This document shows, piece after piece, positions 119 through 36,000 of a stretch of 64,000 bases of DNA. The stretch's first letter is position 1. Each line of letters begins with the position of its first letter. Position numbers and translations under genes: made by a program. The notes beneath the pieces were generated by a model. That model did not search any database and was not told the DNA's origin. It saw nothing but the letters and a program-made list of their open reading frames with translations. The stretch comes from Pseudomonadota bacterium. GTDB taxonomy: Bacteria; Pseudomonadota; Gammaproteobacteria; Burkholderiales; Ga0077523. The stretch is taken from the NCBI GenBank assembly GCA_963205165.1, contig CAUJJX010000030.1:878-64877 (forward strand), in the 5' to 3' direction.

Positions 119-465
119 GATGTCGGAGCGCGGGTGGGTGGAGCGAAGGCGCGCAATGCTACCGGAAGGCGGGGACGGGACGGCCGCGGCACTGCGGCGG
201 TGAGGGGAATTTCGGGGCGCGCAACGAATGGTCCGGCACGCCCCGCGCGATCGCGGTCACGGAATCGCGATCGCCGGATCGGGGCCGCCCTGACCGGGGG
301 CGTCGGCGGTGCATGCACGTCGAGGCGCGCACGTACCACCCATCGTGGTTATGCCGGCCGACTCATGGTCCCGGACGGTCGGGCAGACCGATGCTTCGCG
401 GGCGTCGATCCCCCCACAGCCGGATGCAGGCGCACAGCCCGGCTCAGCCCCGAAGGAGACCCACC

Positions 466-1791
466 ATGACCCCCTTTCATGCACGAACCCTCGCGACGAC
501 CCTTGCCGTGTCGCTCGGCATCGCGCTCGCGCCGTCGGCGCAGGCCATCACGTTCGACATCCTCGGCGAGTCCGGCGACGTCGTCGGTACGTTCACGCCC
601 GACGCAGCCGACTGGATCCTGGCGCCCGGCAGCGGCAGCGGCGACATCGCGGCGCAGTCCGGCGGCGGGTTCGAAGTGCTGCTCGGCCAGTCCGTCTTCG
701 GCGCGTCTGAGGTTGCGACGCAGGATTCCCACATCTACGGCGCCGGGTTGATCCTGCCCGCGACGGGGTACGGGTATCGCGTCAACTTCTCGGCAAACCT
801 GCGCACGTGGGACTCCTACAACATCGGGGAATCGGTACAGCCGCTGCCCGGCGGATCGCTCGGCTACTGGGATCTCTTCGCGGTGAACGCGAACACGAGC
901 GACTACTACTGGAATCTCGTCGACCAGGGCATCGGCAGTCCCGGGGAACCGGTCGCGCTGCTGAGGGATTCCCTCGTGCCGATGCCGCCGGCGGGTTCCG
1001 TCGTCCGCTACACGAACCCCGGCGACAACGCCGCTGCGCTGCCCGGCGCGACCTGGGCCTGGGGCGGTCGCGATTTCGCGGCCGGCTATTTCGAATCGAT
1101 CCGGACGAGTTCGTCGGTGACGGTCGCCGCTTCGGCCCCCGTCTTCGTGAGCTTCGTCCTCGACACGGCGACTCGCGAGAGCGCGGACAACCGGTTCCCG
1201 TCGTGGGGTGCGTTCGGCGTGGCAGGGCAGTTCGCCGATGTGCCCGACGGTGCGCAGGGCAGCGCGCCGGGCTTGAGCGCGAACAATCCGCTGCTGCCCG
1301 TCGACGGCAACGTGTCCGACGGCCATTTCGTGTTCGATACGTTCGTCGTGGTGGAGGGCGGCCCCGGCACGGCGTCGTTCCTCTTCGTCGATCCGGTCGT
1401 TGCCGTCGGCTACGAGTACCAGGTGAGCGGCGGGCCGAGCTTCGCCGAGGTGCTGCTGCCGACGCTCGGCGACGCCGACGGCTACGGCATCGAGGTTCGC
1501 CCGGACGACGAATGGGTCCTCGCCGGGACGGTGGGGGACGGCGGCAGCTTCACGTTCGCTGCGGTCGTGAACCGGTTCCGCGTCATGGGGATCGACCCGG
1601 CACTCGGACTCGATCCGATGAATCCGGTGGCCTTCGTGACCGGTCTGAAGTTCGACGCCACCGGCCCGGTGCAGATCGAGATGACGGCCGTGACGGCGGC
1701 GGTTCCGGAACCGGAAACGTACGCGATGCTGGGTCTGGGACTCGCGCTGATCGGATTGCGCCGGGCGCGCCGCGAACGTTCCGTCGGCTGA
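466..1791 (+). CDS. PEP-CTERM sorting-domain secreted protein
   Basis: ATG at 466 is preceded by GAAGGAG (452-458). The N-terminal signal peptide is MTPFHARTLATTLAVSLGIALAPSAQA. The C-terminus VPEPETYAMLGLGLALIGLRRARRERS has the PEP motif, a TM helix and a basic tail. The upstream part of ORF 313..1791 is discarded. Confidence 0.85.
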   Translation: MTPFHARTLATTLAVSLGIALAPSAQAITFDILGESGDVVGTFTPDAADWILAPGSGSGDIAAQSGGGFEVLLGQSVFGASEVATQDSHIYGAGLILPATGYGYRVNFSANLRTWDSYNIGESVQPLPGGSLGYWDLFAVNANTSDYYWNLVDQGIGSPGEPVALLRDSLVPMPPAGSVVRYTNPGDNAAALPGATWAWGGRDFAAGYFESIRTSSSVTVAASAPVFVSFVLDTATRESADNRFPSWGAFGVAGQFADVPDGAQGSAPGLSANNPLLPVDGNVSDGHFVFDTFVVVEGGPGTASFLFVDPVVAVGYEYQVSGGPSFAEVLLPTLGDADGYGIEVRPDDEWVLAGTVGDGGSFTFAAVVNRFRVMGIDPALGLDPMNPVAFVTGLKFDATGPVQIEMTAVTAAVPEPETYAMLGLGLALIGLRRARRERSVG

Positions 1792-2463: not shown

Positions 2464-3624
2464 TCAGACCGTCGCCCGCAGCGCCGTGCGCACGGACCAG
2501 TCGTCGAGCGTGTGCGACACGAGGTAGGGATCGGGGCGCACGCGTTCGCGCGCCTCTTCCAGGATCTCGAACCGGCCCGTGGCATCGACGCGTCCGATGC
2601 GCGGCCGCAGGTGCGTGTGGTGGTTCTCCTCGTCGATGCGCACGCGGCCCTGCGGTGCGTCGACCTCGGTCCCGGGGAGGGCGCGACGCACCGATTCGAC
2701 ATCGTCCGGATCGGCGCGTCCCAACGCATCGGCCAGCAGGTGCATCTGGAAACACGCGGCTTCCCAGCATTGATTGGCCGGGTGCTCCGATCCGTTTCGT
2801 GCGCGATACGCCGCCAGCGTGCGGCGATTCGTGTCGGTGTCGACGGTCTGGAAGTACGGCGCCGCGGTGATGTGGCCCTCGGCGAACTCGGCGCCCATCT
2901 GGTGCACCTCGGCCTCGCATGTCGAGAGACTCGCGATCGGCGTGCGGGCCGGATCGAGCCCTGCCGACCGGAACGCGCGATGGAGCATCGCGGTGCTTTC
3001 ACCGACGACCGTCGAGAACACGAAGTCCGGGGCGGCCTGGCGGATGCGTTTCGCGACCGCGGTGAAGTCGTCCTGTCGCGCGTCGAGCGGCAGGTACAGC
3101 TCCGCGAGCTTCTCGCCGCCGCGTTCGAGCACGAGGTCGCTCATGATGCGATTGGACTCGTACGGGAACACGTAGTCCGACCCGACCATGAACACGCGCG
3201 TCCCGAAGTGGCGGGTCATGAACTCGGCGAGCTGCACGCTGTTCTGGTTCGGCGCGGCACCGGTGTAGAAGACGTGGCGCGAAAACTCGAAGCCCTCGTA
3301 CAGCGTCGGGTAGAGCAGCAGCGCGTTCCATCGGTCCAGCACCGGCATGACGGCCTTGCGCGCGCTCGACGTGTAGCAACCGGCGATGAGTCGCACGCCA
3401 TCCTCACGGACGAGGCGTTCGGCGAGTGACCGGAACAGCGCGGGACGCGACTGCGGATCGTGCGCGATCACCTGGAGTTCGCGACCGCCGATGCCGCCGG
3501 CGGCGTTGATCTCGTCGACCGCCAGCAGGGTGCCGAGCCGCTGGGAGTTCTCGATCTCCGACGTGACGCCCGTCTCGGAGAACAGCATCCCGATGCGGAT
3601 CGGGTCGTGATGGATGGATGTCAT
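2464..3624 (-). CDS. amiC: AmiC, amide-binding negative regulator (type I periplasmic-binding-protein fold, cytoplasmic)
   Basis: The 386-aa product starts MTSIHHDPIRIGMLFSETGVTSEIENSQRLGTLLAVDEINAAGGIGGR. It continues with LLYPTLYEGFEFS, GSDYVFPYESN and PDPYLVSHTLDDWS. It is closely collinear with P. aeruginosa AmiC. ATG at 3624 was read from the minus strand (ATGACATCCATCCATCAC). Confidence 0.92.
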   Translation of the reverse strand: MTSIHHDPIRIGMLFSETGVTSEIENSQRLGTLLAVDEINAAGGIGGRELQVIAHDPQSRPALFRSLAERLVREDGVRLIAGCYTSSARKAVMPVLDRWNALLLYPTLYEGFEFSRHVFYTGAAPNQNSVQLAEFMTRHFGTRVFMVGSDYVFPYESNRIMSDLVLERGGEKLAELYLPLDARQDDFTAVAKRIRQAAPDFVFSTVVGESTAMLHRAFRSAGLDPARTPIASLSTCEAEVHQMGAEFAEGHITAAPYFQTVDTDTNRRTLAAYRARNGSEHPANQCWEAACFQMHLLADALGRADPDDVESVRRALPGTEVDAPQGRVRIDEENHHTHLRPRIGRVDATGRFEILEEARERVRPDPYLVSHTLDDWSVRTALRATV

Positions 3625-4150
3625 GGGCCGTGGTTCATGAAGGTCTCGCGGCGTGTGCCCGGCGCGCGTCCTTGCGCGGAGCGGGCGGGTGGACGAGGGC
3701 CATCCGTGCGGCCTTCCATTTAGCAATTCGCGCACCGTCGGGCGACGCGCACGTCGATGTCGTCGCGATGCCCGGCGGGACATGGTCCGGTGTCGGATCG
3801 TTGCCGTCCGCCGCATCGGTCGACGACGTGTCGGCGCGCACTCCGATGGCGCAGCGACCGGGCGGATCGCACCAGGTTCGAGCGTGTCGCTCGCTGCGAG
3901 CGATGGTCGATCCGCGGTCGAATGTTGCGGCCGAGGTCCCCTTCCGGGTTCTGGTGCGGGCGCAGAAAACCACTGCTGGCAAAGGACAAACCGGAAAAAA
4001 GCGGGTCGCTCGATCTCGCCATCGAGACGCCGGAAGTCTCCGTCGGAAGGCGTCAGGCCCGCCGTTTGCAAACACGATCGTCGTGGTCGTCGCACCGTGC
4101 ACATGAACGTGCCGCGACGACGACGGCATCACCCAGGATTTCCGCATCCC

Positions 4151-4189
4151 CGGAACAAAGGCGTTCCGCGATGCAACGGCAAAAGAGCC
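4151..4189 (+). promoter_or_regulatory. Candidate ANTAR (AmiR) RNA target: two tandem small hairpins abutting the leader terminator
   Basis: Hairpin 1 is CGGAAC[AAAGGC]GTTCCG (4151-4168): a 6-bp stem and a hexaloop with A1 and G4. Hairpin 2 is GGC[AAAAGA]GCC (4178-4189): only a 3-bp stem, with G at loop position 5 rather than 4. The 3' arm of hairpin 2 is the first 3 nt of the terminator stem. Confidence 0.5.
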
Positions 4190-4225
4190 CGTGGACCGGT
4201 CGGACCGGTCCACGGGCTTTTTTTT
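4187..4225 (+). terminator. Intrinsic terminator inside the urtA leader (attenuator)
   Basis: GCCCGTGGACCGG (4187-4199) pairs with CCGGTCCACGGGC (4205-4217), with loop TCGGA (4200-4204), followed by T8 (4218-4225). It sits 95 nt upstream of the urtA ATG and is not downstream of any plus-strand gene. Confidence 0.8.
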
Positions 4226-4320
4226 GGCGTCCGGCGGGTGGGCGTTCGCAGTCCGTGCGCAGCAGGCAGGCCAGTGCAACTTCGATCAACGACTTCGGAA
4301 GGGGAACAGCCGTGAGCAAC

Positions 4321-5502
4321 ATGAGCAGGCGAAATTTCATCAGGAATTCGGGTCTCGTCGCCGCCGCGAGCGCGGTGTCGTTCCCGATGCTGAACATCCG
4401 CTCGGCCGGCGCGGCCGAGACCGTGAAGGTCGGGATCCTCCATTCGCTGACGGGCACGATCGCCATCGCCGAGAAATCGGTCGTCGATGCGGAGATGCTC
4501 GCCATCGAGGAGATCAACAAGGCCGGCGGCGTGATGGGCATGCGCATCGAGCCCGTCATCGAGGACGGTGCGAGCGACTGGCCGACCTTCGCCGAGAAGG
4601 CACGCAAGCTCCTCGAACGCGACAAGGTGGCCGCCGTGATGGGCTGCTACACGTCCGCGTCGCGGAAGGCCGTGCTGCCGGTGTTCGAGAAGCTGAAGGG
4701 CCTGCTCTACTACCCGACGTACTACGAGGGCCTCGAGCAGTCGCCGAACATCATGTACACGGCGCAGGAGGCCACGCAGTCGGTCATCGCCGCGATGGAA
4801 TGGCTCGCGAAGAACAAGGGCAAGTCCTTCTACATGATCGGGTCGGACTACATCTGGCCGCGCACCACGATCAAGATCGCGAAGGCGACGCTCGCCCGTC
4901 TCGGCGGCAAGCTCGTCGGCGAGGGCTACTACCCGCTCGGCCACATCGAGTTCTCGTCCGAGATCAACAAGATCAAGGCCGCGAAGCCCGACGTGATCCT
5001 GAACTGCGTCGTCGGCGGATCGAACGTCGCCTTCTTCAAGCAGCTCGCCGCGGCCGGCATCACCGGCAAGTCGCAGACGATCCTGTCGCTCGCGGTGTCG
5101 GAAGAGGAAGTCTCCGGGATCGGCGCCGACAACACCGTCGGCACGCTCACCTGCATGGGCTACTTCGAGAGCCTGAAGAATCCGGCGAACGACAGGTTCG
5201 TGAAGGCCTTCAAGGCGAAGTACGGCGCGAACCGCGTGACGGGCGACACGCTCGCGTGCGGCTACACGTCGGTCTACCTGTGGAAGCTCGCGGCCGAGAA
5301 GGCGAAGAGCTTCGACGTGGCGAAGGTCGTCGCGGCGTCGTCCGGACTGGAGTTCGACGGACCCGAGGGCAAGGTCAAGTTCCACACGGCGAACCACCAT
5401 CTGTGGAAGCACGCGCGGATCGGCATGTTCAAGCCCGACGGGCAGGTCGACATGATCCACGAGTCGCCGCTCATCGAACCCAACCCCTTCCCGAAGCTGT
5501 AA
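4321..5502 (+). CDS. urtA: Urea/short-chain-amide ABC transporter substrate-binding protein (UrtA/FmdD type)
   Basis: The Tat-like signal is MSRRNFIRNSGLVAAASAVSFPMLNIRSAGA. The mature part (VKVGILHSLTGTIAIAEKSVVDAEMLAIEEINKAGGV, YYPTYYEGLEQSPN, GSDYIWPR) is the UrtA/AmiC-like PBP family. An alternative in-frame GTG at 4312 lies closer to GGAAGGGG. Confidence 0.9.
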   Translation: MSRRNFIRNSGLVAAASAVSFPMLNIRSAGAAETVKVGILHSLTGTIAIAEKSVVDAEMLAIEEINKAGGVMGMRIEPVIEDGASDWPTFAEKARKLLERDKVAAVMGCYTSASRKAVLPVFEKLKGLLYYPTYYEGLEQSPNIMYTAQEATQSVIAAMEWLAKNKGKSFYMIGSDYIWPRTTIKIAKATLARLGGKLVGEGYYPLGHIEFSSEINKIKAAKPDVILNCVVGGSNVAFFKQLAAAGITGKSQTILSLAVSEEEVSGIGADNTVGTLTCMGYFESLKNPANDRFVKAFKAKYGANRVTGDTLACGYTSVYLWKLAAEKAKSFDVAKVVAASSGLEFDGPEGKVKFHTANHHLWKHARIGMFKPDGQVDMIHESPLIEPNPFPKL

Positions 5503-5653
5503 TCACCCGCGCCGCACGCCGCGTCGTGCCGCCGTCGCGAGGTCGTGCCTCGTGGCGGCGGTCGGTGCGCGGGGCGCCCGCGACCACCGCACCAAGAACC
5601 CGAAACGAACGAGAGCCAGCGATGTTCCAGATGACCGCCGGGAGGACCGCGCC

Positions 5654-6556
5654 GTGACCGTCGACATGTTCGCCATGCAGGCATTCACGGGCCTGTCGAT
5701 CTTCACGATCCTGATGCTGATGGCGCTGGGACTCGCGATCGTCTTCGGGCTGATGGGCGTCATCAACATGGCGCACGGCGAACTGATGGCGATGGGTGCG
5801 TACACGAGCTACGGCACGGCGCTCTTCTTCCAGAAGTTCATGCCCTCGCTGATGGACGCCTACGTCTTCGTCGGCATCGTGCTCGCGTTCATCGTGACGA
5901 GTGTCTTCGGCTTCCTGCTCGAGCGCGGGCTGATCCGCTTCCTGTACCGGCGCCCGCTCGACACGCTGCTCGCGACGTGGGGCCTGTCGCTGATCCTCCA
6001 GCAGGTCTTCCGCCAGTTCATCGACGCGAAGGAAGTCGAGGTGCCGACGGTGTCGTGGCTGAAGGGCGCGTGGCAGGTGACGGAAGGCATCGCGCTGCCG
6101 CTGTCGCGCCTCTTCATCATCGTCCTCGCGATCGTCACGGCGGCCGTCGTCTACATGATCCTGTTCCGGACGCGCGCCGGACTGCGCATCCGGGCGGTCA
6201 CGCAGAACCGCGTGATGGCCGGGGCCGCGGGCATCGACACGGCGCGCGTCGACGCACTTTCGTTCGCGTTCGGCTGCGGCCTCGCCGGCATCGCGGGCAG
6301 CTCGTTCACGATGCTCGCGTCCACCGGCCCGACGACGGGCCAGCAGTACATCGTCGACACCTTCATCGTCGTCGTGTTCGGCGGCGTCGAGAGCCTGCTC
6401 GGCACGATCTCGTCCGCCTTCCTCATCGGGCAGATGCAGTCGTGGTTCGAGTTCGGACTCGGCGGGTCCATGGCCCGCGCCAGCATCCTCGCGCTCGTGA
6501 TCGCGGTCCTGTACTTCCGGCCCAACGGGCTGTTCGCGGCGAAAGTGCGCCGCTGA
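5654..6556 (+). CDS. urtB: Urea ABC transporter permease UrtB
   Basis: This is a multi-TM branched-chain-type permease (LGLAIVFGLMGVINMAHGELMAMGAYT ... NGLFAAKVRR). GTG at 5654 is 7 nt after GGAGGA (5641-5646). An ATG at 5666 is the alternative start. Confidence 0.85.
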   Translation: MTVDMFAMQAFTGLSIFTILMLMALGLAIVFGLMGVINMAHGELMAMGAYTSYGTALFFQKFMPSLMDAYVFVGIVLAFIVTSVFGFLLERGLIRFLYRRPLDTLLATWGLSLILQQVFRQFIDAKEVEVPTVSWLKGAWQVTEGIALPLSRLFIIVLAIVTAAVVYMILFRTRAGLRIRAVTQNRVMAGAAGIDTARVDALSFAFGCGLAGIAGSSFTMLASTGPTTGQQYIVDTFIVVVFGGVESLLGTISSAFLIGQMQSWFEFGLGGSMARASILALVIAVLYFRPNGLFAAKVRR

Positions 6557-6578: not shown

Positions 6579-7754
6579 ATGCAGACGCACATCGAGTCCT
6601 CCAGCCCGGCCCGCGCGGCCGTCGCCAACGTCGGACGCAGCCGCGGATTCCTCGAGCGCTGGAGCTTCGCGATCCTCGCGGTCCTGCTGCTCGCCGCGCT
6701 GCCGCTGTCGCTCGACGTCTTCCGGCTCGGGCTCGCCGCGAAGTTCCTGTCGCTCGGCTTCTGCGCCGTCGGCATCGTGCTGATCTGGGGCTACGGCGGG
6801 ATCCTGAGCCTGGGGCAGGGCGTGTTCTTCGGCCTCGGCAGCTACATGATGGCCATGTTCCTCAAGCTCGAATCGACGGGTGCGGACAGCTCGGCCCAGG
6901 CGCTGTCGTCGTTCTTCGGATCGAGCCTGCCCGACTTCATGGTGTGGAACAGCATCGAGGCGCTGCCGTGGTGGTGGGAGCCCTTCCACCACGTGTGGTT
7001 CACGCTGCCTGCGATCGTGCTGCTGCCCGCGCTGCTCGCCTTCGTGCTCGCGTACGCCAACTTCCGCAAGCGCGTCGGCGGCGTGTACTTCTCGATCATC
7101 ACGCTGGCGCTGTCGGCGATCCTGTCGATCGTGATCATCGGCCAGCAGGGCGTGACCGGCGGCGTGAACGGCATCAACGATTTCCGGACCTTCCTCGGGG
7201 TCAACCTCGACGAGGACCGCGTGAAGATCGCGATGTACTTCGTCACGTGCGTGCTGCTGCTCGCGTGCGTCGCCGTCGGCCGCTTCCTGCTGCGCAGCCG
7301 GCTCGGCAAGGTGCTCGTCGCGATCCGCGACCGCGAGGACCGCGTGCGCTTCTCGGGCTACGACCCGGCGCTCTTCAAGGCCTTCGTGTTCGCCGTGGCC
7401 GCGATCTTCTCGTCGATCGGCGGTGCGCTCTTCACGATGCAGGTCGGACTCGCGTCGCCGTCGCTCGTCGGCATCGTGCCGTCCGTCGAGATGGTGATCT
7501 ACGCGGCGGTCGGTGGCCGGCTCTCGCTCGTCGGGGCGGTGTACGGCGCCGTGCTCGTCGGCGCCGCGAAGACCTTCTTCTCCGAGAACTTCGTCGAGTA
7601 CTGGATGTACTTCATCGGCGTGCTGTTCGTCGTCGTCGTGATGTTCCTGCCGGACGGGCTCGCCGGACTCATAGCCCGGGTGCGTGCGCGCCGTTCGAAG
7701 GCGCCGACACCGGCGACGGCGCCGCTCGCCACGGCCACGGGAGTCGCGAAATGA
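6579..7754 (+). CDS. urtC: Urea ABC transporter permease UrtC
   Basis: This is a LivM-like permease (IWGYGGILSLGQGVFFGLGSYMMAMFLKLE, GGVNGINDFRTFLG). Its stop overlaps the urtD start (ATGA at 7751-7754). Confidence 0.88.
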   Translation: MQTHIESSSPARAAVANVGRSRGFLERWSFAILAVLLLAALPLSLDVFRLGLAAKFLSLGFCAVGIVLIWGYGGILSLGQGVFFGLGSYMMAMFLKLESTGADSSAQALSSFFGSSLPDFMVWNSIEALPWWWEPFHHVWFTLPAIVLLPALLAFVLAYANFRKRVGGVYFSIITLALSAILSIVIIGQQGVTGGVNGINDFRTFLGVNLDEDRVKIAMYFVTCVLLLACVAVGRFLLRSRLGKVLVAIRDREDRVRFSGYDPALFKAFVFAVAAIFSSIGGALFTMQVGLASPSLVGIVPSVEMVIYAAVGGRLSLVGAVYGAVLVGAAKTFFSENFVEYWMYFIGVLFVVVVMFLPDGLAGLIARVRARRSKAPTPATAPLATATGVAK

Positions 7755-8488
7755 GCGAGCTGATCCTCGCCGTGGAGGACCTCACGGTCTCGTTCGACGG
7801 CTTCAAGGCGGTGGACGGTCTCAACTTCTACGTCGAGAAGGACGAGCTGCGCGTCGTGATCGGACCCAACGGCGCCGGCAAGACGACGCTGCTCGACATG
7901 ATCTGCGGGAAGACGAAGCCGACGGCCGGCACGATCAAGTTCAAGTACCGCGATCTCGCCGAGATGATCGAGTTCCAGATCACGCGGCTCGGCGTGGGCC
8001 GCAAGTTCCAGAACCCCTCGGTCTACGAGGACCTCACGGTCTTCGAGAACCTCGAGATCTCGTATCCGCAGCGGCGCGGGCTGCTCGGGTCGCTGCTGTT
8101 CCGGCGCGACGACGCGCTGCTCGACAAGATCGACGAAGTGGCCGGCCTGATCTTTCTCGACGAGGTGCTGCGCCACAAGGCCGGCCAGCTCTCGCACGGA
8201 CAGAAGCAGTGGCTCGAGATCGGGATGCTGCTCATGCAGGACCCCGAGCTGCTGCTGCTCGACGAGCCCGTCGCCGGCATGAGTGCACGCGAACGCGAGC
8301 AGACGGCGCAGCTCCTGAACGGCATCTCGAAGGGCCGCTCGATCGTCGTGATCGAGCACGACATGGCCTTCGTGAAGCTCATCGCCCACAAGGTCACGGT
8401 GCTGCACCAGGGGAAGCTGCTCGCCGAGGGCAGCATGGACGAGGTGCAGGCCGACGAGCGTGTCCGCGAAGTCTATCTGGGCCACTGA
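7751..8488 (+). CDS. urtD: Urea ABC transporter ATP-binding protein UrtD
   Basis: Walker A is GPNGAGKTT, the signature is LSHGQKQWLEIG and Walker B is LLLLDEP. The start is coupled to the urtC stop. Confidence 0.9.
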   Translation: MSELILAVEDLTVSFDGFKAVDGLNFYVEKDELRVVIGPNGAGKTTLLDMICGKTKPTAGTIKFKYRDLAEMIEFQITRLGVGRKFQNPSVYEDLTVFENLEISYPQRRGLLGSLLFRRDDALLDKIDEVAGLIFLDEVLRHKAGQLSHGQKQWLEIGMLLMQDPELLLLDEPVAGMSAREREQTAQLLNGISKGRSIVVIEHDMAFVKLIAHKVTVLHQGKLLAEGSMDEVQADERVREVYLGH

Positions 8489-8501
8489 GGAAGAGACGAT
8501 C

Positions 8502-9191
8502 GTGCTCCAGGTCAATCAGCTGAATGTCTACTACGGCGAGAGCCACGTGCTGCGCAACGCGTCGTTCTCGGTCGCGAAGGGCGAGACCGTGGCGATCATG
8601 GGTCGCAACGGGATGGGCAAGAGCACGCTGCTGAAGGCGCTCATCGGGATCCTGCCGACGCGCGGCGGCAGCGTGTCGCTCGGCGGGCGCGAACTCACCG
8701 GCACGCCGACGTACACGCGGGTCGCGGCGGGGATGGGCTTCGTGCCGCAGGGCCGGATGATCTTTCCGTACCTCACCGTCGAGGAAAACATCCTGACCGG
8801 CATGGAGAAGGCGGCGGAGAAGACGGTGCCCGCGTACATCTACGAGGTCTTCCCGGTGCTGCTCGAGATGAAGCACCGCCGCGGCGGGAATCTCTCCGGC
8901 GGCCAGCAGCAGCAACTCGCCATCGCCCGCGCGCTCGTGAGCAACCCGGGCGTGCTGGTCCTCGACGAACCGACCGAGGGCATCCAGCCGTCGATCATCA
9001 AGGACATCGCGCGCGCACTGAACACGCTGAAGGCGGAGCGCGGCTTCTCGCTCGTCGTGTCGGAGCAGGTGCTGTCGTTCGCGATGGCCGTCGCCGACCG
9101 CTTCCTGATCATCGAGAAAGGCGAGTTCGTCCACGAGGCGGCGCGGGCCGACGCGGACGAAGGCGTGATCCACGGGTATCTGACGATCTGA
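8502..9191 (+). CDS. urtE: Urea ABC transporter ATP-binding protein UrtE
   Basis: Walker A is GRNGMGKST, the signature is [15 protein letters not shown] and Walker B is VLVLDEP. GTG at 8502 follows GAGGAAGAG (8488-8496). The track start at 8460 overlaps urtD and is less likely. Confidence 0.88.
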
Positions 9192-9234: not shown

Positions 9235-10275
9235 ATGATGCACGGAGACATTTCCAGCAGCCGGGACACCGTCGGTGTCGCGGTCGTGAACTACACGATG
9301 CCGCGGCTGCACACGAAGGCCGAGGTGATCGCCAACGCGCGGAAGATCGCCGACATGCTGAAGGGCATGAAGCGCGGCCTGCCCGGCATGGACCTCGTGA
9401 TCTTCCCCGAGTACAGCACCCACGGGATCATGTACGACGCGAAGGAGATGTACGACACGGCCGCGTCGGTGCCCGGCGAGGAGACCGAGATCTTCGCCGC
9501 GGCCTGCCGCGAGGCGAAGGTCTGGGGCGTCTTCTCGCTCACCGGCGAGCGGCACGAGGAGCATCCGCACAAGGCGCCGTACAACACGCTGATCCTGATG
9601 AACGACCAGGGCGAGATCGTGCAGAAGTACCGCAAGATCATGCCGTGGGTGCCCATCGAGGGCTGGTATCCGGGCAACTGCACGTACGTGTCCGAGGGCC
9701 CGAAGGGCCTGAAGATCAGCCTGATCATCTGCGACGACGGCAACTACCCGGAGATCTGGCGCGACTGCGCGATGAAGGGCGCCGAGCTGATCGTCCGCTG
9801 CCAGGGCTACATGTATCCCGCGAAGGACCAGCAGGTCGTGATGGCGAAGGCGATGGCGTGGGCGAACAACACGTACGTCGCCGTCGCGAACGCAGCCGGC
9901 TTCGACGGCGTGTACTCGTACTTCGGCCACTCCGCGATCATCGGCTTCGACGGCCGCACGCTCGGCGAATGCGGCGAGGAGGACATGGGCGTGCAGTACG
10001 CGGCGCTCTCGACGAGCCTGATCCGCGACTTCCGCAAGAACGGTCAGTCCGAGAACCACCTCTTCAAGCTCCTCCATCGCGGCTACACCGGAATGATCAA
10101 TTCGCACGAAGGCGACAAGGGGGTGGCCGCCTGCCCGTACGACTTCTACAAGCGATGGATCACGGACCCCGATGCCACGCGCGAGGCCGTCGAGGCGATC
10201 ACGCGCACGACCGTCGGCACGGAGGAATGCCCGATCGACGGCATCCCGAACGGCGCGACGCCGGTGCATCGCTGA
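9235..10275 (+). CDS. amiE: Aliphatic amidase (nitrilase-superfamily acylamide amidohydrolase)
   Basis: It is near-collinear with P. aeruginosa AmiE: [32 protein letters not shown] (catalytic Glu), YRKIMPW (Lys), [17 protein letters not shown] (Cys), and [30 protein letters not shown]. The RBS is GAGGAG. Confidence 0.93.
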
Positions 10276-10345
10276 CCGCACCACGACGACCGGACGGCGG
10301 GTGCGGCACACTCGCCGTCCATCTCGGCAACCGACAGGACACACC

Positions 10346-10795
10346 ATGCTGCGTCTCACCAGGGTGCTCGGCCACGCGACCGATCCGCTGATCGCGGAAT
10401 CCCTGCACCAGCTCGAACACGGCGGCGGCGTCGAGCGCATCCGGCTCTCGCGCGCCGACACCGCCCGCAAGCGGCTGCACGCCTTCACCGACCGCGGCAC
10501 CGAGGTCGGGATCATGCTCGACCGCACCGAGGCGCTCGCGAACGGCGCCGTGCTGTGGCTCGACGACGCCCGCGCGATCGTCGTCGCGCTCGACGAGCCG
10601 CAATGGCTCGGGCTCGCCCCGCGCGATGCCGCCGCCGCGCTGGAGCTCGGCTACTTCTGCGGGAACATGCACTGGAAGGTGCGGTTCGCCGGCGAGTACC
10701 TGCACGTGTCGCTCGAGGGGCCGCGCGACGACTACCTCGTGCGTCTCGCGCATCTCGTGAAATCGGGCGCGATCCGGGTGATCGGCGATGAGTGA
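10346..10795 (+). CDS. ureE: Urease accessory protein UreE (no His-rich tail)
   Basis: The 149-aa product carries LELGYFCGNMHWKVRF, the equivalent of the UreE GNRH metal-site motif. It sits at the head of the ure genes. It ends ...GAIRVIGDE without poly-His. Confidence 0.75.
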   Translation: MLRLTRVLGHATDPLIAESLHQLEHGGGVERIRLSRADTARKRLHAFTDRGTEVGIMLDRTEALANGAVLWLDDARAIVVALDEPQWLGLAPRDAAAALELGYFCGNMHWKVRFAGEYLHVSLEGPRDDYLVRLAHLVKSGAIRVIGDE

Positions 10796-11468
10796 TCTCG
10801 CGCAGACGCTCGCACTGCTGCAGTTCGGCGACAGCTTCTTCCCGAGCGGCGCGACGTCGTTCTCGTGGGGGCTCGAGACGCTGCGGGCCGATGGTCTCGT
10901 CGTGCGCGCATCCGACGTCGAGGCGCTGATCGAGGGGCAGATCCGGCATCGGTGGGCGAGCTTCGACCGGCCCGCGCTGATCGCGTCGTATCGCGCCGCC
11001 GGTGATCTCGATCGCATCGCCGACGTCGATCGCGAGATCGATGCCGCGACGCTCGCCCGCGAGGCACGCGATGGCGGACGCCGCATCGGCAGCGCGCTCC
11101 TGAAGGTGCACGCCGGCATGGGGACGCCGGGCGCCGCCGACTATCGCGAACGCGTGCAGCGCGGCGATGCGTGCGGCCAGATGACGGCGGTGCACGGATT
11201 GATCGGCCACGCGACGGGCCTCGACGAGACGGCGGTGTGCGCGCTGTCGGCCTACGGACTCGCCGTCGGCACCATCGGCGCCGCGCTGCGCGTCGGACTG
11301 CTCGGTCACGTCGAGGGGCAGGCGATCCTCGCGCGGATGCGTGCGGTCGTCGACGAGGCCGTCGCGTCGCCGCTGCCCGCCGTCGACGCCTGCCACGCAT
11401 ACACGCCCATGGCCGAGATCGCGATGATGCGACACGAGACCGGCAGCGGCCGGATGTTCGCGAGCTGA
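10788..11468 (+). CDS. ureF: Urease accessory protein UreF
   Basis: [21 protein letters not shown] is the characteristic UreF N-terminal motif. It overlaps ureE by 8 nt. Confidence 0.85.
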
Positions 11469-11490
11469 CGCCACCACCAGGACACCGACC

Positions 11491-12186
11491 ATGCTGCTGA
11501 CCCCGACCGAACTGGAACGCCTCACGATCTACACGGCCGCCGAGCTGGCGCGGAAGCGTCGCGCGAAGGGGCTGAAGCTGAATCATCCGGAGACCGTCGC
11601 GTTCATCGCCGACGAGATCCTGGAGGGCGCGCGCGAAGGCCGCTCGGTCGCCGACCTCATCGGGTGGGGCGCGACGCTGCTGACCACAGACGACGTCATG
11701 CCGGGCGTCGCTGCGATGCTGCCGATCCTGCAGGTCGAGGGCACGTTCCCCGACGGCACGAAGCTCGTGACCGTGCACGATCCGGTGCGGCCCGGCCGCG
11801 TCGCCGTCGCACCCGGCCCGACGCCCGGCGAGATCCTGCCGGCCGACGGCGACATCGAGATCAACGCGGGCCGCCGCCGGCACACGCTGCGTGCGCGCAA
11901 CACCGGCGACCGGCCCATCCAGATCGGCAGCCATTACCACTTCTTCGAGGCGAACCGCGCGCTCGACTTCGATCGCGGCGCGGCCTTCGGCATGCACCTC
12001 GACATTCCCGCCGGGACCGCCGTGCGCTTCGAGCCCGGCGAGGAGAAGGAAGTGACGCTCGCGGCCTTCGGCGGCACGGGCGAGATCGTCGGGCTGAACG
12101 CGCTGACGAACGGCACGACGCATGGCGAGGACGCCCGGGATGCAGCACTCGCCCGCGCGCGGGAACGTGGATTCCGGGGCGCATGA
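11491..12186 (+). CDS. ureAB: Urease gamma-beta fusion subunit (UreAB)
   Basis: The N-terminal ~100 aa are the gamma subunit ([39 protein letters not shown] ... [11 protein letters not shown]). The C-terminal part is the beta subunit ([43 protein letters not shown] ... [16 protein letters not shown]). It is one continuous 231-aa ORF. Confidence 0.9.
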
Positions 12187-12216
12187 GCGGCCCGGTCCTT
12201 TGAGGAGTCGACGTCG

Positions 12217-13929
12217 ATGGCGAAGTTGTCGAGAAGGGAATACGCGCAGCTCTACGGCCCGACCACCGGAGACGGCATCCGGCTGGGCGACACCGAGCTG
12301 ATCGCCGAGGTCGAGTTCGACCACGCCGTGCCGGGCGACGAATGTCTGCACGGCGGCGGCAAGACGCTGCGTGACGGCCTCGGGCTCGTCGCCGGGTACG
12401 ACAGCGCCGACGGCGCGCTCGACATGCTGATCTCGAACGTCGTCGTGATCGATCCGGTCGTCGGCATCGTGAAGGGCGACATCGGCATCAAGGACGGCCG
12501 CATCGTCGCGATCGGCAAGGCGGGCAACCCGGCGATCATGGACGGCGTGCACCCGAAGCTCATCTGCGGCGCGGCGACGACCGTCCGCGACGGCGAGGGG
12601 ATGATCGCCACGCCGGGCGGCATCGACGTGCACGTGCACTTCGATTCGGCGCAGCTCGTGGAGCACGCGATCTCGTCCGGTCTCACGACGATGATCGGCG
12701 GATCGCTCGGTCCGATCACGGTCGGGATCGACTGCGGCGGCGCGTGGAACGTCGCGCGGATGCTGCAGGCGGCGGAGCAGTGGCCGATGAATTTCGGCTT
12801 CCTCGGACGCGGCAATTCGTCGAAGCCGAAGTCGCTGCTCGACCAGATCAGCGGCGGCTGCCTCGGACTGAAGATCCACGAGGACTGGGGCGCGATGCCC
12901 GCCGCGATCGACACGTGTCTCTCGGTCGCCGACGAACTCGACTTCCAGGTGCAGCTCCACACCGACACGCTGAACGAATCCGGCTTCCTGGAGGACACGC
13001 TCGCCGCCATCGGCGACCGGACGATCCACATGTATCACACGGAAGGTGCGGGCGGCGGGCACGCGCCGGACATCATCGCCGTCGCGGGCAAGTACAACTG
13101 CCTGCCGTCGTCGACGAACCCGACCAACCCGTACACCGTGAACACGTTCGACGAGCACCTCGACATGATCATGGTGTGCCACCACCTCAACCCGTCCGTG
13201 CCCGAGGACGTCGCGTTCGCCGAGAGCCGCATCCGCGCGCAGACGATCGCCGCCGAGGATGTCCTGCACGACATGGGCGCGATCTCGATGCTCGGGTCCG
13301 ACAGCCAGGGCATGGGCCGCATCCACGAGGTGATCTGCCGCACGTGGCAGCTCGCGTCGAAGATGAAGCAGCAGCGCGGCCGGCTGCCGGAGGAGAAGAC
13401 GCGCACCGGCGACAACGAGCGCATCCGCCGCTACATCGCGAAGTACACGATCAACGCGGCGCGCACCTTCGGCATCGACGCGCACGTGGGTTCGCTCGAG
13501 CCGGGCAAGCTCGCGGACATCGTGCTGTGGCGCCCGGCCTTCTTCGGCATCAAGCCCGAGCTGGTCGTGAAGGGCGGCTTCATCGCGTGGGGCGCGATGG
13601 GCGATTCGGCGGCGTCGCTCATGACGTGCGAGCCGATCCTGCTGCGTCCGCAGTGGGGCGCGTTCGGTGCCGCGAAGCAGCCGCTCTCGGCGTGCTTCGT
13701 GAACCCCGCCGCGATCGCCGCCGACCTCGCCGGCACGCTCGGCCTCACGAAGCCGCTGCTCCCCTCTCGCGGGACGCGGCGGCTGAACAAGTCGCACATG
13801 CTCCACAATGACGCCTGCCCGAACATCACGGTGAACGCGCAGACCTTCGACGTGATGATCGACGGCCGCGTCATCGGCTGCGAGCCCGCGAAGGTGGTGC
13901 CGCTCGCACAGAGGTACATGCTGCGATGA
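12217..13929 (+). CDS. ureC: Urease alpha (catalytic) subunit
   Basis: All nickel-site motifs are present: [18 protein letters not shown] (carbamylated Lys), [29 protein letters not shown] and GSDSQGMGR. Confidence 0.95.
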
Positions 13930-13991
13930 CCGCGTTCCCGGAGTCCTGACGCTCCCCGACCCATTTTCGATCCGAACCCGAACGCATCACG

Positions 13992-14645
13992 ATGAACACC
14001 GTCACCGACCAGTCTTCCGCCACCGCCGTCCGCCCGTCCACCGCCGCCCGTGTCGGCATCGGTGGCCCCGTCGGCAGCGGCAAGACCGCGCTGCTCGAAC
14101 AGCTGATCCCGCGGTTCGCCGCGCGCGGCACCAACCTCGCCGTCATCACGAACGACATCGCGACCAGGGAGGACGCCGAGCGCGTCCGCCGCAGCGGGTT
14201 GATCGCGCCGGAACGCGTGCTCGCCGTCGAGACGGGGGCGTGCCCACATTCCGCGATCCGCGAGGACCCGACACTCAATATGGAATCGGCCGACGCGCTC
14301 GACCGGAAGTTTTCCGGGCTCGAGCTGATCCTGATCGAGTCGGGCGGCGACAACCTCGCGTCGTCGTTCTCGCTCGACCTCGTCGACTACTGGCTGTTCG
14401 TGATCGACGTGGCCGGCGGCGACGACATCCCCCGCAAGCGTGGCCTCGGCGTGCTGTCGTGCGACCTGCTCGTGATCAACAAGACCGATCTCGCGCCGTA
14501 CGTCCGCGTCGACCTGCCGCGCATGGTCCGCGAGGCGAACGAGGTCAGGCGTGGCAAGTCCGTGCTGCTCACGAACTGCGCAACGGGCGAGGGCGTCGAC
14601 GCGATCGTCGAGACCATCGCGCGCGAGGTGCTGTTTGACCGGTGA
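13992..14645 (+). CDS. ureG: Urease accessory GTPase UreG
   Basis: The P-loop is [11 protein letters not shown]. Other UreG motifs present are [20 protein letters not shown] and INKTDLAP. Confidence 0.93.
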
Positions 14646-15495
14646 CCGCATCCTGCCGGACGACCTCGACGCCGTGCCGCGCCAGGTCGCGCTCGCCTTC
14701 CGGCGCGATCCGTCCGGCCGCACGTACCTGCTGCGGCAGCACGCGGCGTATCCGTTCCACGTGGGTCGCGCGCTGTACCTGCCGGGCGATCCCGGGGGGT
14801 TCTGCACGACGTACCTCCAGTCGTGCTCGGGCGGCATCTTCCAGCGCGACCGGCTCGGCATCGCGGTGCACGCGGAAGCCGGCGCGGGTGTCCACGTCAC
14901 GACGTCCGCGTCGACGGTCGTGCACTCGATGGAGGACGGCGACGCCGCGCAGTCGATCGTGCTGGACGCAGGCGAGGATGCCGTCCTCGAGTACCTGCCC
15001 GATCCGCAGATCCTCTTTCCGCGCAGCCGCCTGGCGAACCGCCTCGTGATCCGCGCGCATCCGTCGGCGACGGTCGTCGCGTGCGACAGCTTCCTGCCGC
15101 ACGATCCCGCCGCGGCGGGCGAGCCCTTCGACTGGCTGAGGTCCGACACGCGCGTCGAGGACGAATCCGGCGCGCTGCTCGCGGCCGACCGCTTCGCCGT
15201 CACGGGCGCGGATGCCATGGCGGCACGCGTCGGCATCCACGGCGCGTACCGGATGCAGGCGACGCTGCTCGTCGTCCATCGGCGCGATCCGGACGCGATG
15301 CTCGCGGTCCTGCGCGGCGTGCTGCCCGATGGCGATACGGTCTACGCCGGCGCGTCGCTGCTGCCGAACGGCGCGGGCGCGTGGCTGCGGGCGTTGTCGA
15401 GCGATGCGGTCGCGCTGCGCGCGACGCTCCGCGATGCGTGGGCAGCGGTGCGGTCCGCGACGACGGGCCACGCGCCGGGCCCCCGCAGGAAATGA
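14635..15495 (+). CDS. ureD: Urease accessory protein UreD/UreH
   Basis: It has a UreD-like core ([38 protein letters not shown] ... [12 protein letters not shown]). The start is uncertain. TTG at 14635 (an 11-nt overlap with ureG) is proposed; the alternative is the track ATG at 14551. Confidence 0.75.
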
Positions 15496-18629: not shown

Positions 18630-19781
18630 ATGATCGACGCACTCGCCCCCGCCACCATCCCCGCGACCGACGAGGCCTTGCGCCACGAGGTCCGCGCGTT
18701 CCTGCGCGAGCACCTGCGGGATCGTCCGCTCGAGGCGCGCGCGCGATCGTGGATGGGCTTCGATGCCGAGTTCAGTCGTGCCCTCGCGGCGCGCGGCTGG
18801 GTCGGACTCACGCTGCCCGTCGAGTACGGCGGCGGCGGACGCAGCCCGTTCGCGCGCTTCGTGCTCATCGAGGAACTCCTCGCGGCCGGTGCGCCCGTCG
18901 GTGCGCACTGGATTGCCGATCGCCAGAGCGGTCCGCTGCTGCTGAAGTACGGCACCGAGGCGCAGAAGCGCTTCCACCTGCCGCGCATCTGTCGTGCGGA
19001 GTCGTTCTTCTGCATCGGCATGAGCGAGCCGCAGTCGGGGTCCGATCTCGCGAGCGTCCGGACACGCGCCGAACGCGACGGCGACGGCTGGCGGCTGTCG
19101 GGGCAGAAGCTCTGGACGACGCACGCGCCGCGGAGCCATTTCATGATCGCGCTCGTGCGCACGTCCGGCACGCCGGACGACCGGCAGCGCGGGCTGTCGC
19201 AGGTGATCGTCGATCTCGCGGCGCCGGGCGTGACGATCCGGCCGATCCTCGATCTCGCGGGCGATGCGCATTTCTCGGAAGTGTTCTTCGACGACGTGCA
19301 GCTCGGGCCGGATGCGATCGTCGGGCAGGAGGGCGAGGGCTGGGCGCAGGTGACGGCCGAACTCGCGTTCGAGCGCAGCGGGCCGGAGCGCATCTATTCG
19401 AGCCTCGTGCTGTTCGACGCGTGGCTCGATCATCTGCGCGCCGTGCCGTTTCCGGACGAATCGTCGATCGCGCTCGCGGGCCGCATCGCGAGCCATCTCG
19501 CCGTGCTGCGCGCCATGTCGCTCGCGGTGACGGCGAAGCTCGTCGCGGGCGAGAGCCCGGTCGTCGAGGCCGCACTCGTGAAGGACCTCGGCACGACGCT
19601 CGAACAGTTCATCCCGACGGCCGTCGCCGACGTGCTCGGCGCCCACCCGGACCGCGAGATCGATCCGTCGCTGCTGCGCGCGCTCGCGTACGTGACGCAC
19701 GTGGCGCCGTCGTTCTCGCTGCGCGGCGGCACGCGGGAGATCCTGCGCGGCATGATCGCCCGGGGGCTGGGGCTGCGATGA
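18630..19781 (+). CDS. Acyl-CoA dehydrogenase family protein (large subunit of a two-gene ACAD pair)
   Basis: ACAD hallmarks are present: FFCIGMSEPQSGSDLASVRTRAERDGDGWRLSGQKLWTT and GEGWAQVTAELAFERSG. ATG at 18630 (MIDALAP...) is preferred over the track start at 18597. Confidence 0.85.
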   Translation: MIDALAPATIPATDEALRHEVRAFLREHLRDRPLEARARSWMGFDAEFSRALAARGWVGLTLPVEYGGGGRSPFARFVLIEELLAAGAPVGAHWIADRQSGPLLLKYGTEAQKRFHLPRICRAESFFCIGMSEPQSGSDLASVRTRAERDGDGWRLSGQKLWTTHAPRSHFMIALVRTSGTPDDRQRGLSQVIVDLAAPGVTIRPILDLAGDAHFSEVFFDDVQLGPDAIVGQEGEGWAQVTAELAFERSGPERIYSSLVLFDAWLDHLRAVPFPDESSIALAGRIASHLAVLRAMSLAVTAKLVAGESPVVEAALVKDLGTTLEQFIPTAVADVLGAHPDREIDPSLLRALAYVTHVAPSFSLRGGTREILRGMIARGLGLR

Positions 19782-35686: not shown

Positions 35687-36000
35687 CGGGTCGCGCTCAT
35701 CGCGGGCAGGTGGACAGGGGGCAGGCATCGGAGCGTCGGGGCGCGGCGTGCGTTGTCTGCCGGACCGGAAGCCGAAGGGACCTCGGCCGGACGGCTGCTC
35801 TGGATTTCGCGAATGACCCGAACTGCTTCATCCCAACGCGCGCCGGGCGCGTGCCCGGCCTCCTCGTGACGATCGTGTCCGGGACCCGCCGGTCGACGCA
35901 TGCTCGCGCGGCGACGGGGAGATCCCACCCTGAGATCGATTATCCACCGATCCGGCCGGAACTTGCGGTCCGGGACCGACGAACGGCAGTGCCGGCGGGA

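Follow-up and report, generated by a model that had tools for sequence, protein, structure and literature searches.

A 64-kb stretch of the genome of a Burkholderiales bacterium (contig CAUJJX010000030.1; hereafter the window, whose positions serve as coordinates throughout) contains two divergently transcribed gene sets. On the minus strand are amiC and amiR, 5 nt apart from the stop of the former to the start of the latter; on the plus strand are the 12 genes urtABCDE-amiE-ureEF(AB)CGD, which specify a binding-protein-dependent importer, an aliphatic amidase and a full set of urease proteins (Table 1). Between the two sets lies a leader in which two small hairpins, P1 and P2, are followed directly by an intrinsic terminator. 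An earlier note on this DNA, made from the sequence alone, had proposed that this leader is an ANTAR-type attenuator facing a divergent amiC-amiR pair. The analysis presented here supports that proposal through the matches of two covariance models, covariation in P1, conservation of the loops, co-occurrence with amiC and amiR, the RNA-contact residues of AmiR and a candidate promoter.

The positions that the earlier note gave for P1, P2, the terminator and its T8 tract agree exactly with the sequence, and what it described as P1 (4151–4168) is the core of a larger element. This core, CGGAAC[AAAGGC]GUUCCG, is a stem of 6 bp closed by a hexanucleotide loop (4157–4162) with A at position 1 (A4157) and G at position 4 (G4160), and it stands on an outer helix, GCAUC paired with GAUGC, that adds 5 bp. 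A short linker leads to P2, whose 3′ arm (GCC, 4187–4189) is at the same time the 5′ beginning of the terminator stem. The terminator arms 4187–4199/4205–4217 gain the pair T4200–A4204, leaving a 3-nt loop, and further A/U pairs that reach into the U-run. By itself this hairpin has a computed energy of −34.4 kcal/mol, and the minimum-energy structure of 4100–4330 obtained with RNAfold holds both P1 and the terminator. A simple promoter and terminator scanner did not list the terminator at 4187–4225, which is probably a quirk of that scanner's loop-length rule and not evidence against the hairpin; its output was judged uninformative for this leader. An extended form of P2 (a bulged 5-bp stem, ACGGC/GCC-C-GU, −4.2 kcal/mol) was considered and rejected because related leaders do not keep these pairs.

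Table 1. Features of the amiC–urtA region and the genes on either side of it (window coordinates)
Feature	Position	Strand	Remarks
amiR	1845–2459	−	204 amino acids, ANTAR-domain antiterminator protein; limits from gene calling
amiC	2464–3624	−	386 amino acids, cytoplasmic amide-sensor homologue, Peripla_BP_5 (Pfam, 2e-135)
Candidate sigma-54 (−24/−12) promoter of amiC-amiR	3722–3737	−	CGGTGCGCGAATTGCT; 3 mismatches to TGGCACG-N4-TTGCW
Candidate sigma-54 (−24/−12) promoter of urt-amiE-ure operon	4055–4070	+	AGGCCCGCCGTTTGCA; consensus match
P1 hairpin	4144–4174	+	core stem 4151–4156/4163–4168; outer helix 4144–4148/4170–4174
P1–P2 linker	4169–4177	+	9 nt
P2 hairpin	4178–4189	+	GGC[AAAAGA]GCC; 3 bp, 4178–4180/4187–4189; loop 4181–4186
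Intrinsic terminator	4187–4225	+	13–14 bp G+C-rich stem 4187–4200/4204–4217; U8 4218–4225
Post-terminator block	4226–4262	+	GGCGTCCGGCGGGTGGGCG...TCCGTGCGCAGCAG; conserved, candidate element
urtA-like periplasmic binding protein	4312–5502	+	Pfam Peripla_BP_5, Tat-type signal; first gene past the switch
urtB	5552–6556	+	NCBIfam equivalog above its cut-off
urtC	6579–7754	+	NCBIfam equivalog above its cut-off
urtD	7751–8488	+	NCBIfam equivalog above its cut-off
urtE	about 8460–9191	+	NCBIfam equivalog above its cut-off
amiE, aliphatic amidase	9235–10275	+	NCBIfam equivalog, 721 bits (cut-off 427)
ureE, ureF, ureAB (fused), ureC, ureG, ureD	10346–15495	+	Pfam

No ANTAR family was among the matches of Rfam 15 for 3400–4600 at E ≤ 10, and for this reason covariance models were built here instead. 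The matches that Rfam did return in that interval (tfoR, P6, BcKCsr2 and miRNAs) are weak and driven by the terminator, and were set aside; at the gathering threshold, the sole match in nine related loci was 5_ureB_sRNA, inside a urease gene. Our first model was made from 21 related leaders, with the window and its near-twin L005 left out (L-numbers denote related loci). Run with filters off on the window, it matched 4145–4191 at 35.5 bits (E = 4e-7), with runners-up in the 64 kb at 20.4, 17.7 and 15.1 bits. Its matches at 35844–35888 (−), 18754–18794 (−) and 11343–11372 (+), which lack a U-run and fall within or next to coding sequence, were rejected as chance. Over 757 kb of related loci, all of its matches above 30 bits sit directly 5′ of the binding-protein gene. 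The second model was made from six published ANTAR substrates of Enterococcus and Listeria eut genes (Ramesh et al. 2012, Fig. S1), and at E ≤ 5 it returned a single match in the window, at 4152–4192 (29.5 bits, E = 5e-5). The covariance search that the earlier note had suggested as a check is thus significant at the site with both models. In terms of the features that characterize dual-hexaloop ANTAR targets, the leader has two tandem stem-loops of at least 3 bp each with hexanucleotide loops in both, A1 and G4 in the P1 loop, a short and constrained linker, an overlap between P2 and the terminator, and the covariance-model scores just given.

Related loci were gathered by a genome scan with AmiC, which gave three Burkholderiales loci from metagenome-assembled genomes, and by a metagenome scan, for which the highly conserved binding protein was aligned and which gave 80 more; their layouts were mapped by tblastn. 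About 17 distinct loci show the arrangement amiR-amiC <-> urtABCDE-amiE(-ureEF...), and many other loci have the transporter and amidase genes with no amiC or amiR nearby. The leaders linked to amiC share one design: a P1 of the form xxGAC[AANGGN]GUCxx with a varying stem, a 9-nt linker, a P2 of the form GGC[ANNGRA]GCC that merges directly into the terminator stem, and a U-run. The terminator stems vary in sequence with their pairing kept, and the U-run is conserved. In a MAFFT alignment of 23 leaders, compensatory double changes occur at six of the eight P1 pairs, in answer to the earlier call for such an alignment; the covariation score is 0.252, whereas column shuffles give 0.097, none of the 500 attaining the observed value, and sliding the pairing partners gives at most 0.124. 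RNAalifold, with no structure supplied, predicts the P1 core and P2, each with its hexaloop. Over 28 distinct leaders the P1 loop has A1 in 27 and G4 in 27, the P2 loop has A1 in 26 of 27 relatives and G4 in 24 of 27, and the linker is 9 nt long in nearly all. In the published ANTAR seeds this linker measures 5–18 nt (Ramesh et al. 2012, Fig. S1), and the spacing of the hairpins matters for antitermination (PMC8934654). It could be argued that the likeness to an ANTAR site arose by chance in G+C-rich sequence beside an ordinary terminator; small G+C-rich hairpins are indeed common in this genome, and the 231-nt leader has only a moderate folding advantage over shuffled versions of itself (z = −3.0). 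However, two independent models match this site with no comparable second match, and compensatory changes and conservation extend over 28 distinct leaders, so that this explanation is effectively refuted.

The proteins that would read such a leader are encoded beside it, and the presence of the motif follows theirs: it was found in 17 of 19 loci with adjacent amiC and amiR and in 2 of the 26 distinct loci that lack them and have enough flank (counts 17/2/2/24; Fisher p = 2.3e-8). AmiR of the window carries the Pfam domains AmiR_N (PF21332, 2e-36) and ANTAR (PF03861, 1.2e-14) and matches the structure of Pseudomonas aeruginosa AmiR (PDB 1QO0 chain D) with E = 6e-24, and AmiC matches P. aeruginosa AmiC (1PEA) over its full length with E = 2e-109. 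By sequence the two clearly correspond to the P. aeruginosa pair; the earlier note had already named them AmiC and AmiR and described them as divergent. AmiC has no signal peptide, as its Peripla_BP_5 domain begins at residue 9. At the positions aligned to Ser85, Tyr104, Thr106 and Tyr150 of P. aeruginosa AmiC, which have a role in acetamide binding, the window protein has identical residues. Likewise, when AmiR is aligned to EutV (6WSH), Tyr164 and Met172 of EutV correspond to Tyr and Met; in EutV, Tyr164 stacks on the loop G4 and Met172 plugs the loop (PMC8934654). P. aeruginosa AmiR, in contrast, has His at the position of Tyr164.

Further upstream in the leader, the element at 4055–4070 has 2 mismatches to TGGCACG-N4-TTGCW and is one of just two such matches in the 64 kb, with its −24 GG and −12 GC exactly 10 nt apart. 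It lies about 90 nt 5′ of P1 and predicts a transcription start near 4081, about 60–70 nt before P1. In 11 related loci (L001, L002, L004, L005, L007, L011, L019, L038, L041, L051 and L061) the element is conserved in position, 194–306 nt 5′ of the binding-protein start, and in L005 it matches at 11 of 12 positions. On the amiC side, GG-N10-GC with TTGCT stands at the same place as the window's 3722–3737 element in L001, L004, L005, L018, L021 and L059, and this element would presumably serve as the promoter of amiC-amiR. The conserved sigma-54-type elements suggest a layer of nitrogen control placed over amide-specific antitermination, for which NtrC would be the obvious activator. Dyads resembling NtrC sites are seen between the divergent sigma-54 elements of relatives (for example TGCACCATTGGTGTGC in L001), and the window has a weak match only, GCACCAGGTTCGAGCG near 3871–3886.

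These promoter-like elements also bear on the possibility that the hairpin and its U8 constitute an unregulated terminator, one that insulates amiC-amiR and the operon from each other or that ends a short noncoding RNA. A start near 4081 and a stop at 4225 would leave a stable transcript some 145 nt long, and the simple scanner found no sigma-70 promoter ahead of the binding-protein gene, including between the terminator and the gene. Terminated RNAs that contain ANTAR sites can act in trans, as EutX and Rli55 do when they sequester EutV. However, constitutive termination would leave the operon promoterless, the only conserved promoter-like element being 5′ of the terminator; moreover, a P2 that shares bases with the foot of the terminator, a linker fixed at 9 nt and loops with A1 and G4 are just what characterizes the regulated switch, and a role as decoy would supplement attenuation, not replace it. 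We consider an unregulated terminator very improbable.

The reading that we prefer, with a probability of roughly 0.85, is that the leader is an ANTAR-type transcription attenuator ahead of the 12-gene operon and is read by AmiC and AmiR. Transcription would probably begin 60–70 nt 5′ of P1 at the sigma-54-type promoter, which would add nitrogen control, and P1 would be the first element to fold in the nascent leader. With no inducer present, AmiC would hold AmiR, the terminator stem (4187–4217) would form and the polymerase would halt at the U8 tract. Binding of a small amide to AmiC would free AmiR to recognize the hexaloops of P1 and P2; with P2 held closed through its GGC/GCC pairs, the terminator stem would lose its bottom pairs beside the U-run, termination would fail and the operon would be transcribed. 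That closing P2 would suffice for antitermination is expected from the ANTAR model and from what is generally known of intrinsic termination.

Several observations weigh against this reading. The motif is present at L013 and L051/52 with no amiC, amiR or other ANTAR gene within 6 kb upstream, which fits a different explanation, namely that the attenuator is real and its reader is another ANTAR protein encoded elsewhere (of the NasT or response-regulator type) or a factor outside the ANTAR group. The signature is indeed generic to ANTAR proteins, as the model built from EutV targets finds the site. On the other hand, the motif is strongly associated with an adjacent divergent amiC-amiR pair, and its unlinked copies look partly eroded: at L013 (5865–5911) the P1 loop is AAAATC, with G4 lost, and the U-run is broken, and at L051/L052 (5868–5914) the same seems to hold, L051 having a P1 loop of GAGGAC and a P2 3′ arm of ACG. 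Nor was a second site by one of the models, or a further ANTAR gene, seen in the 64-kb window, whose open reading frames were not scanned exhaustively. A reader other than AmiR is thus improbable, if somewhat less so than an unregulated terminator.

The P2 loop also departs from the expected signature, having A1 but A at position 4 and its G one place later, at position 5; in recognition by EutV it is the stacking of G4 that is central (PMC8934654). This deviation appears to be tolerated in known members, because L005, the nearest relative, and a Caballeronia plasmid share the AAAAGA loop, and P. aeruginosa amiE, a target of AmiR established by experiment, has G at position 5 too, its P2 being printed as AGAGC[AAAUGG]GCUCU in the seed alignment of Ramesh et al. 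2012 (Fig. S1); a related loop, AAAAGG, occurs in L070/72. The earlier note had called the second hairpin weak for its 3-bp stem and its G5. Both features are there, but the concern is largely answered, because 3 bp is the published minimum for ANTAR stems, the validated P2 of Enterococcus faecalis eutP, GGC[AAAGGA]GCC, has 3 bp and is nearly alike to that of the window (Ramesh et al. 2012, Fig. S1), and the G5 variant recurs. In addition, the GGC/GCC stem of P2 is invariant among relatives, which amounts to conservation but gives no support from covariation, and A-rich sequence ahead of a terminator stem can come about simply as the partner of the U-run, as in the distant loci L075, L076, L080 and L083. 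When P2 is forced in silico, an 11-bp hairpin remains 3 nt away from the U-run, so that antitermination would have to rely on the known dependence of termination on the stem base, on the bulk of the protein or on both. Lastly, the window shows no excess of sigma-54 consensus matches when up to 3 mismatches are allowed, and it is from a consensus match that we infer the use of 4055–4070 as the urt promoter.

As to what such a switch would control, the intergenic gaps from urtA to ureD are at most 70 nt and several genes overlap, over about 11 kb. A scan of the plus strand among the 12 genes with the simple scanner found no terminator-like sites. It is plausible from this layout that importer, amidase and urease are carried on one transcript of about 11 kb under one switch. 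The genes ureE and ureF also follow amiE in L004, L005, L006, L009, L010, L013, L018, L019 and L021. Within the amiE–ureE gap of the window, at 10293–10320 (+), is an 8-bp hairpin, GGACGGCG...CGCCGUCC, without a U-run, the loop of which holds GGCGGGUG and GGCACAC, strings shared with other conserved leader blocks. A separate observation concerns L009 (10794–10836) and L023 (8915–8957), where a lone hairpin with the ANTAR loop signature, GCGAC[AAGGGC]GUCGC, lies between urtE and amiE; it scores 22 bits with the model built from related leaders and has no U-run behind it. The urtE–amiE junction of the window is only 43 nt long and lacks such a hairpin.

The earlier note had placed the start of urtA at an ATG 95 nt past the terminator. 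The location of the terminator within a leader stands, but relatives lack the ATG at 4321, and the conserved start is a GTG at 4312, behind the ribosome-binding site AAGGGGAA; both the start and this site are kept in relatives, so the U-run ends 86 nt before the start. Just past the terminator, the block at 4226–4262 is kept in L001, L002 and L004, and in part also in L005 and L009, in a leader that is otherwise not conserved around it. The string GGCGGGTGGGCG from this block, with GGCGGGTGG as its core, is found again at 3683–3695, oriented alike, beside a hairpin in the amiC leader that is described below. The possibility that GGCGGGTGGGCG is an enriched repeat was rejected, as 15 copies were found in the window with up to 2 mismatches and 16 were expected; only its position is of note.

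It is informative to compare the window with known systems. The P. aeruginosa amiE leader, in the amiEBCRS operon, uses the same AmiC/AmiR pair, likewise counts an aliphatic amidase among its targets and has two small hairpins before its terminator. In P. aeruginosa, however, amiC and amiR lie downstream inside the target operon and amiE is the gene regulated, whereas in the window the two regulators are divergent with a candidate promoter of their own, a five-gene importer comes first, a full urease set follows amiE and amiB and amiS are absent. The urt promoter, which looks to be of the sigma-54 type, is likewise unlike that of P. aeruginosa amiE. The arrangement of the Klebsiella oxytoca nasF leader and NasR is closer in some respects, as it has an ANTAR dual hairpin that overlaps the leader terminator and an operon for a nitrogen source with the transporter genes first. 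The nasF promoter depends on NtrC and sigma-54, which combines general nitrogen control with antitermination specific for the substrate, and since a −24/−12 element is conserved at the window locus a similar two-layer logic may operate there. The sensors differ: NasR has a NIT-domain sensor for nitrate in the same polypeptide, and the window has a separate AmiC sensor, presumably for amides or urea.

At the level of the RNA, the window's P1 has the same loop as P1 of Listeria monocytogenes eutG, GGUAC[AAAGGC]GUACU. The eut leaders, however, are read by EutV, a phosphorylated response regulator, and the window leader would be read by a pseudo-receiver protein that is sequestered by AmiC; the phylum and the pathway differ as well. 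For the importer, a likeness can be drawn to FmdDEF of Methylophilus methylotrophus, an UrtA-like, binding-protein-dependent importer of short-chain amides and urea that is linked to an amidase gene. As FmdDEF is likewise UrtA-like and amidase-linked, the window's “urea” transporter may carry short amides; we know of no description of ANTAR control of FmdDEF. The linkage to an amidase also raises the possibility that the binding protein itself binds short amides, instead of or besides urea. Its NCBIfam UrtA score is 499 bits, barely above the cut-off of 492.75. The solved structure closest to it is 8TG1, an “extracellular ligand-binding receptor” (428 bits), and urea-binding UrtA structures score about 336. 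A precedent is also found in the betaproteobacterium Methylobacillus flagellatus, whose amidase operon comes with an AmiR homologue and a covariance match that overlaps a terminator; this predicted site appears solely in a table, where it is analysed neither comparatively nor structurally (Ramesh et al. 2012, Table S2). The urtABCDE-formamidase locus of Klebsiella plasmids was considered as a further relative and dismissed, as the motif is absent and the regulator differs.

Antitermination by AmiC/AmiR and the leader terminator on which it acts are classical (PMC12591593), the dual-hexaloop ANTAR motif was defined in 2012, when ANTAR sites before betaproteobacterial amidase operons were also predicted (Ramesh et al. 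2012), and gene-level descriptions exist of clusters in which amiC and amiR stand with an ABC transporter and amiE (PMC13209695). A 2024 preprint discusses “ANTAR regulated ABC transporter operons”, although the RNA motif was not found in its own system. It is therefore well supported that the switch in the window is a new example of a known mechanism, and the current understanding of ANTAR regulation is unchanged by it. As judged from the layout, it is distinct in arrangement, with divergent regulators, the importer placed first, urease included and a candidate sigma-54 promoter.

Nonetheless, AmiC and AmiR have been studied almost only in P. aeruginosa, where they control amiE from within the operon, and the window together with about 17 related loci appears to present the same switch rearranged, with the regulators divergent and importer, amidase and urease downstream. 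In these Burkholderiales, the genes annotated “urea transporter” are probably part of a regulon induced by amides, and their products may import short amides; the scavenging of nitrogen from amides and from urea may be co-regulated by one RNA switch set atop a sigma-54 promoter. The 28 natural variants, in which positions of the P1 and P2 loops vary, G5 of P2 included, help to define the RNA specificity of AmiR. Given that the Rfam 15 scans returned no ANTAR family, this set of variants may also be useful for genome annotation.

A hairpin with the ANTAR loop signature is also found on the other side of the intergenic region. In the 5′ leader of amiC, at 3663–3678 (−), is a single hairpin, CGCGC[AAGGAC]GCGCG, with A1 and G4 and no terminator. 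The block that contains it is almost invariant in L001, L002, L004 and L005, and at the same position L009 and L023 have a different stem, GGCCGC[AAGGAA]GCGGCC. About 25 nt past this hairpin, at 3621–3638 (−), is an upstream open reading frame of five codons, AUG AAC CAC GGC CCA UGA, whose stop overlaps the amiC start (AUGA). Its length and position are kept, with synonymous changes, in L001 and L002 (MNNST*), L004 (MTIGT*) and L005 (MNHGP*); in L003 its AUG appears to serve as the amiC start itself. A single hexaloop is the minimal binding unit of ANTAR proteins (PMC8934654), and AmiR could on that account feed back on the synthesis of AmiC. We hold it doubtful, though worth stating, that AmiR acts at such a second type of site, with feedback on its anti-activator through translation or mRNA stability and not through termination. 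If it did, the locus, with sigma-54 promoters on both sides, would form a gate requiring nitrogen control and an amide together, with built-in feedback.

A second class of leader, carried by many loci that lack amiC and amiR, was seen 5′ of the binding-protein gene in L012, L015, L016, L017, L020, L022, L070, L072, L076, L078, L080, L082 and L083. These leaders have a covarying hairpin, a short linker and a small hairpin fused to a terminator, in the forms stem-C-C[A(A/G)NA(C/U)(U/C)]G-C-stem for P1 and GGC[AAAAYU/AAAAAA/AAAAGG]GCC for P2, with G4 usually missing; 96% of cells are paired and the covariation score is 0.389, as against 0.110 in shuffles. An Rfam scan gave no match to them, and a search for a regulator beside these leaders, L013 and L051 found none, the second class mostly being without one within 6 kb. 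An intermediate form is found in L085 (6793–6839), on plasmid pSBC2-3 of Caballeronia sp. SBC2 (NZ_CP049319.1), a cultured member of the Burkholderiaceae, where urtABCDE, an amidase gene, an AmiC-like gene and an ANTAR gene lie on a single strand. Its leader joins a P1 like that of the second class, GCCG-C-C[AAUGUU]G-C-CGGC, to a P2 of the window type, GGC[AAAAGA]GCC, before a terminator. This pairing of a second-class-like P1 with an ANTAR gene ties the second class to ANTAR proteins, and the carrier of the plasmid is a possible experimental host.

Among the remaining features of the locus, the ureAB gene that follows amiE (11491–12186) encodes the gamma and beta subunits of urease as a fusion. 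In L006, L009, L010 and L013 a second urease cluster, which has separate subunits and is only 55–60% identical, lies past amiR on the opposite side. In the window, the neighbour on that side is an open reading frame of 492 amino acids at 313–1791 (+), convergent with amiR, whose product has a PEP-CTERM sorting motif at its C-terminus.

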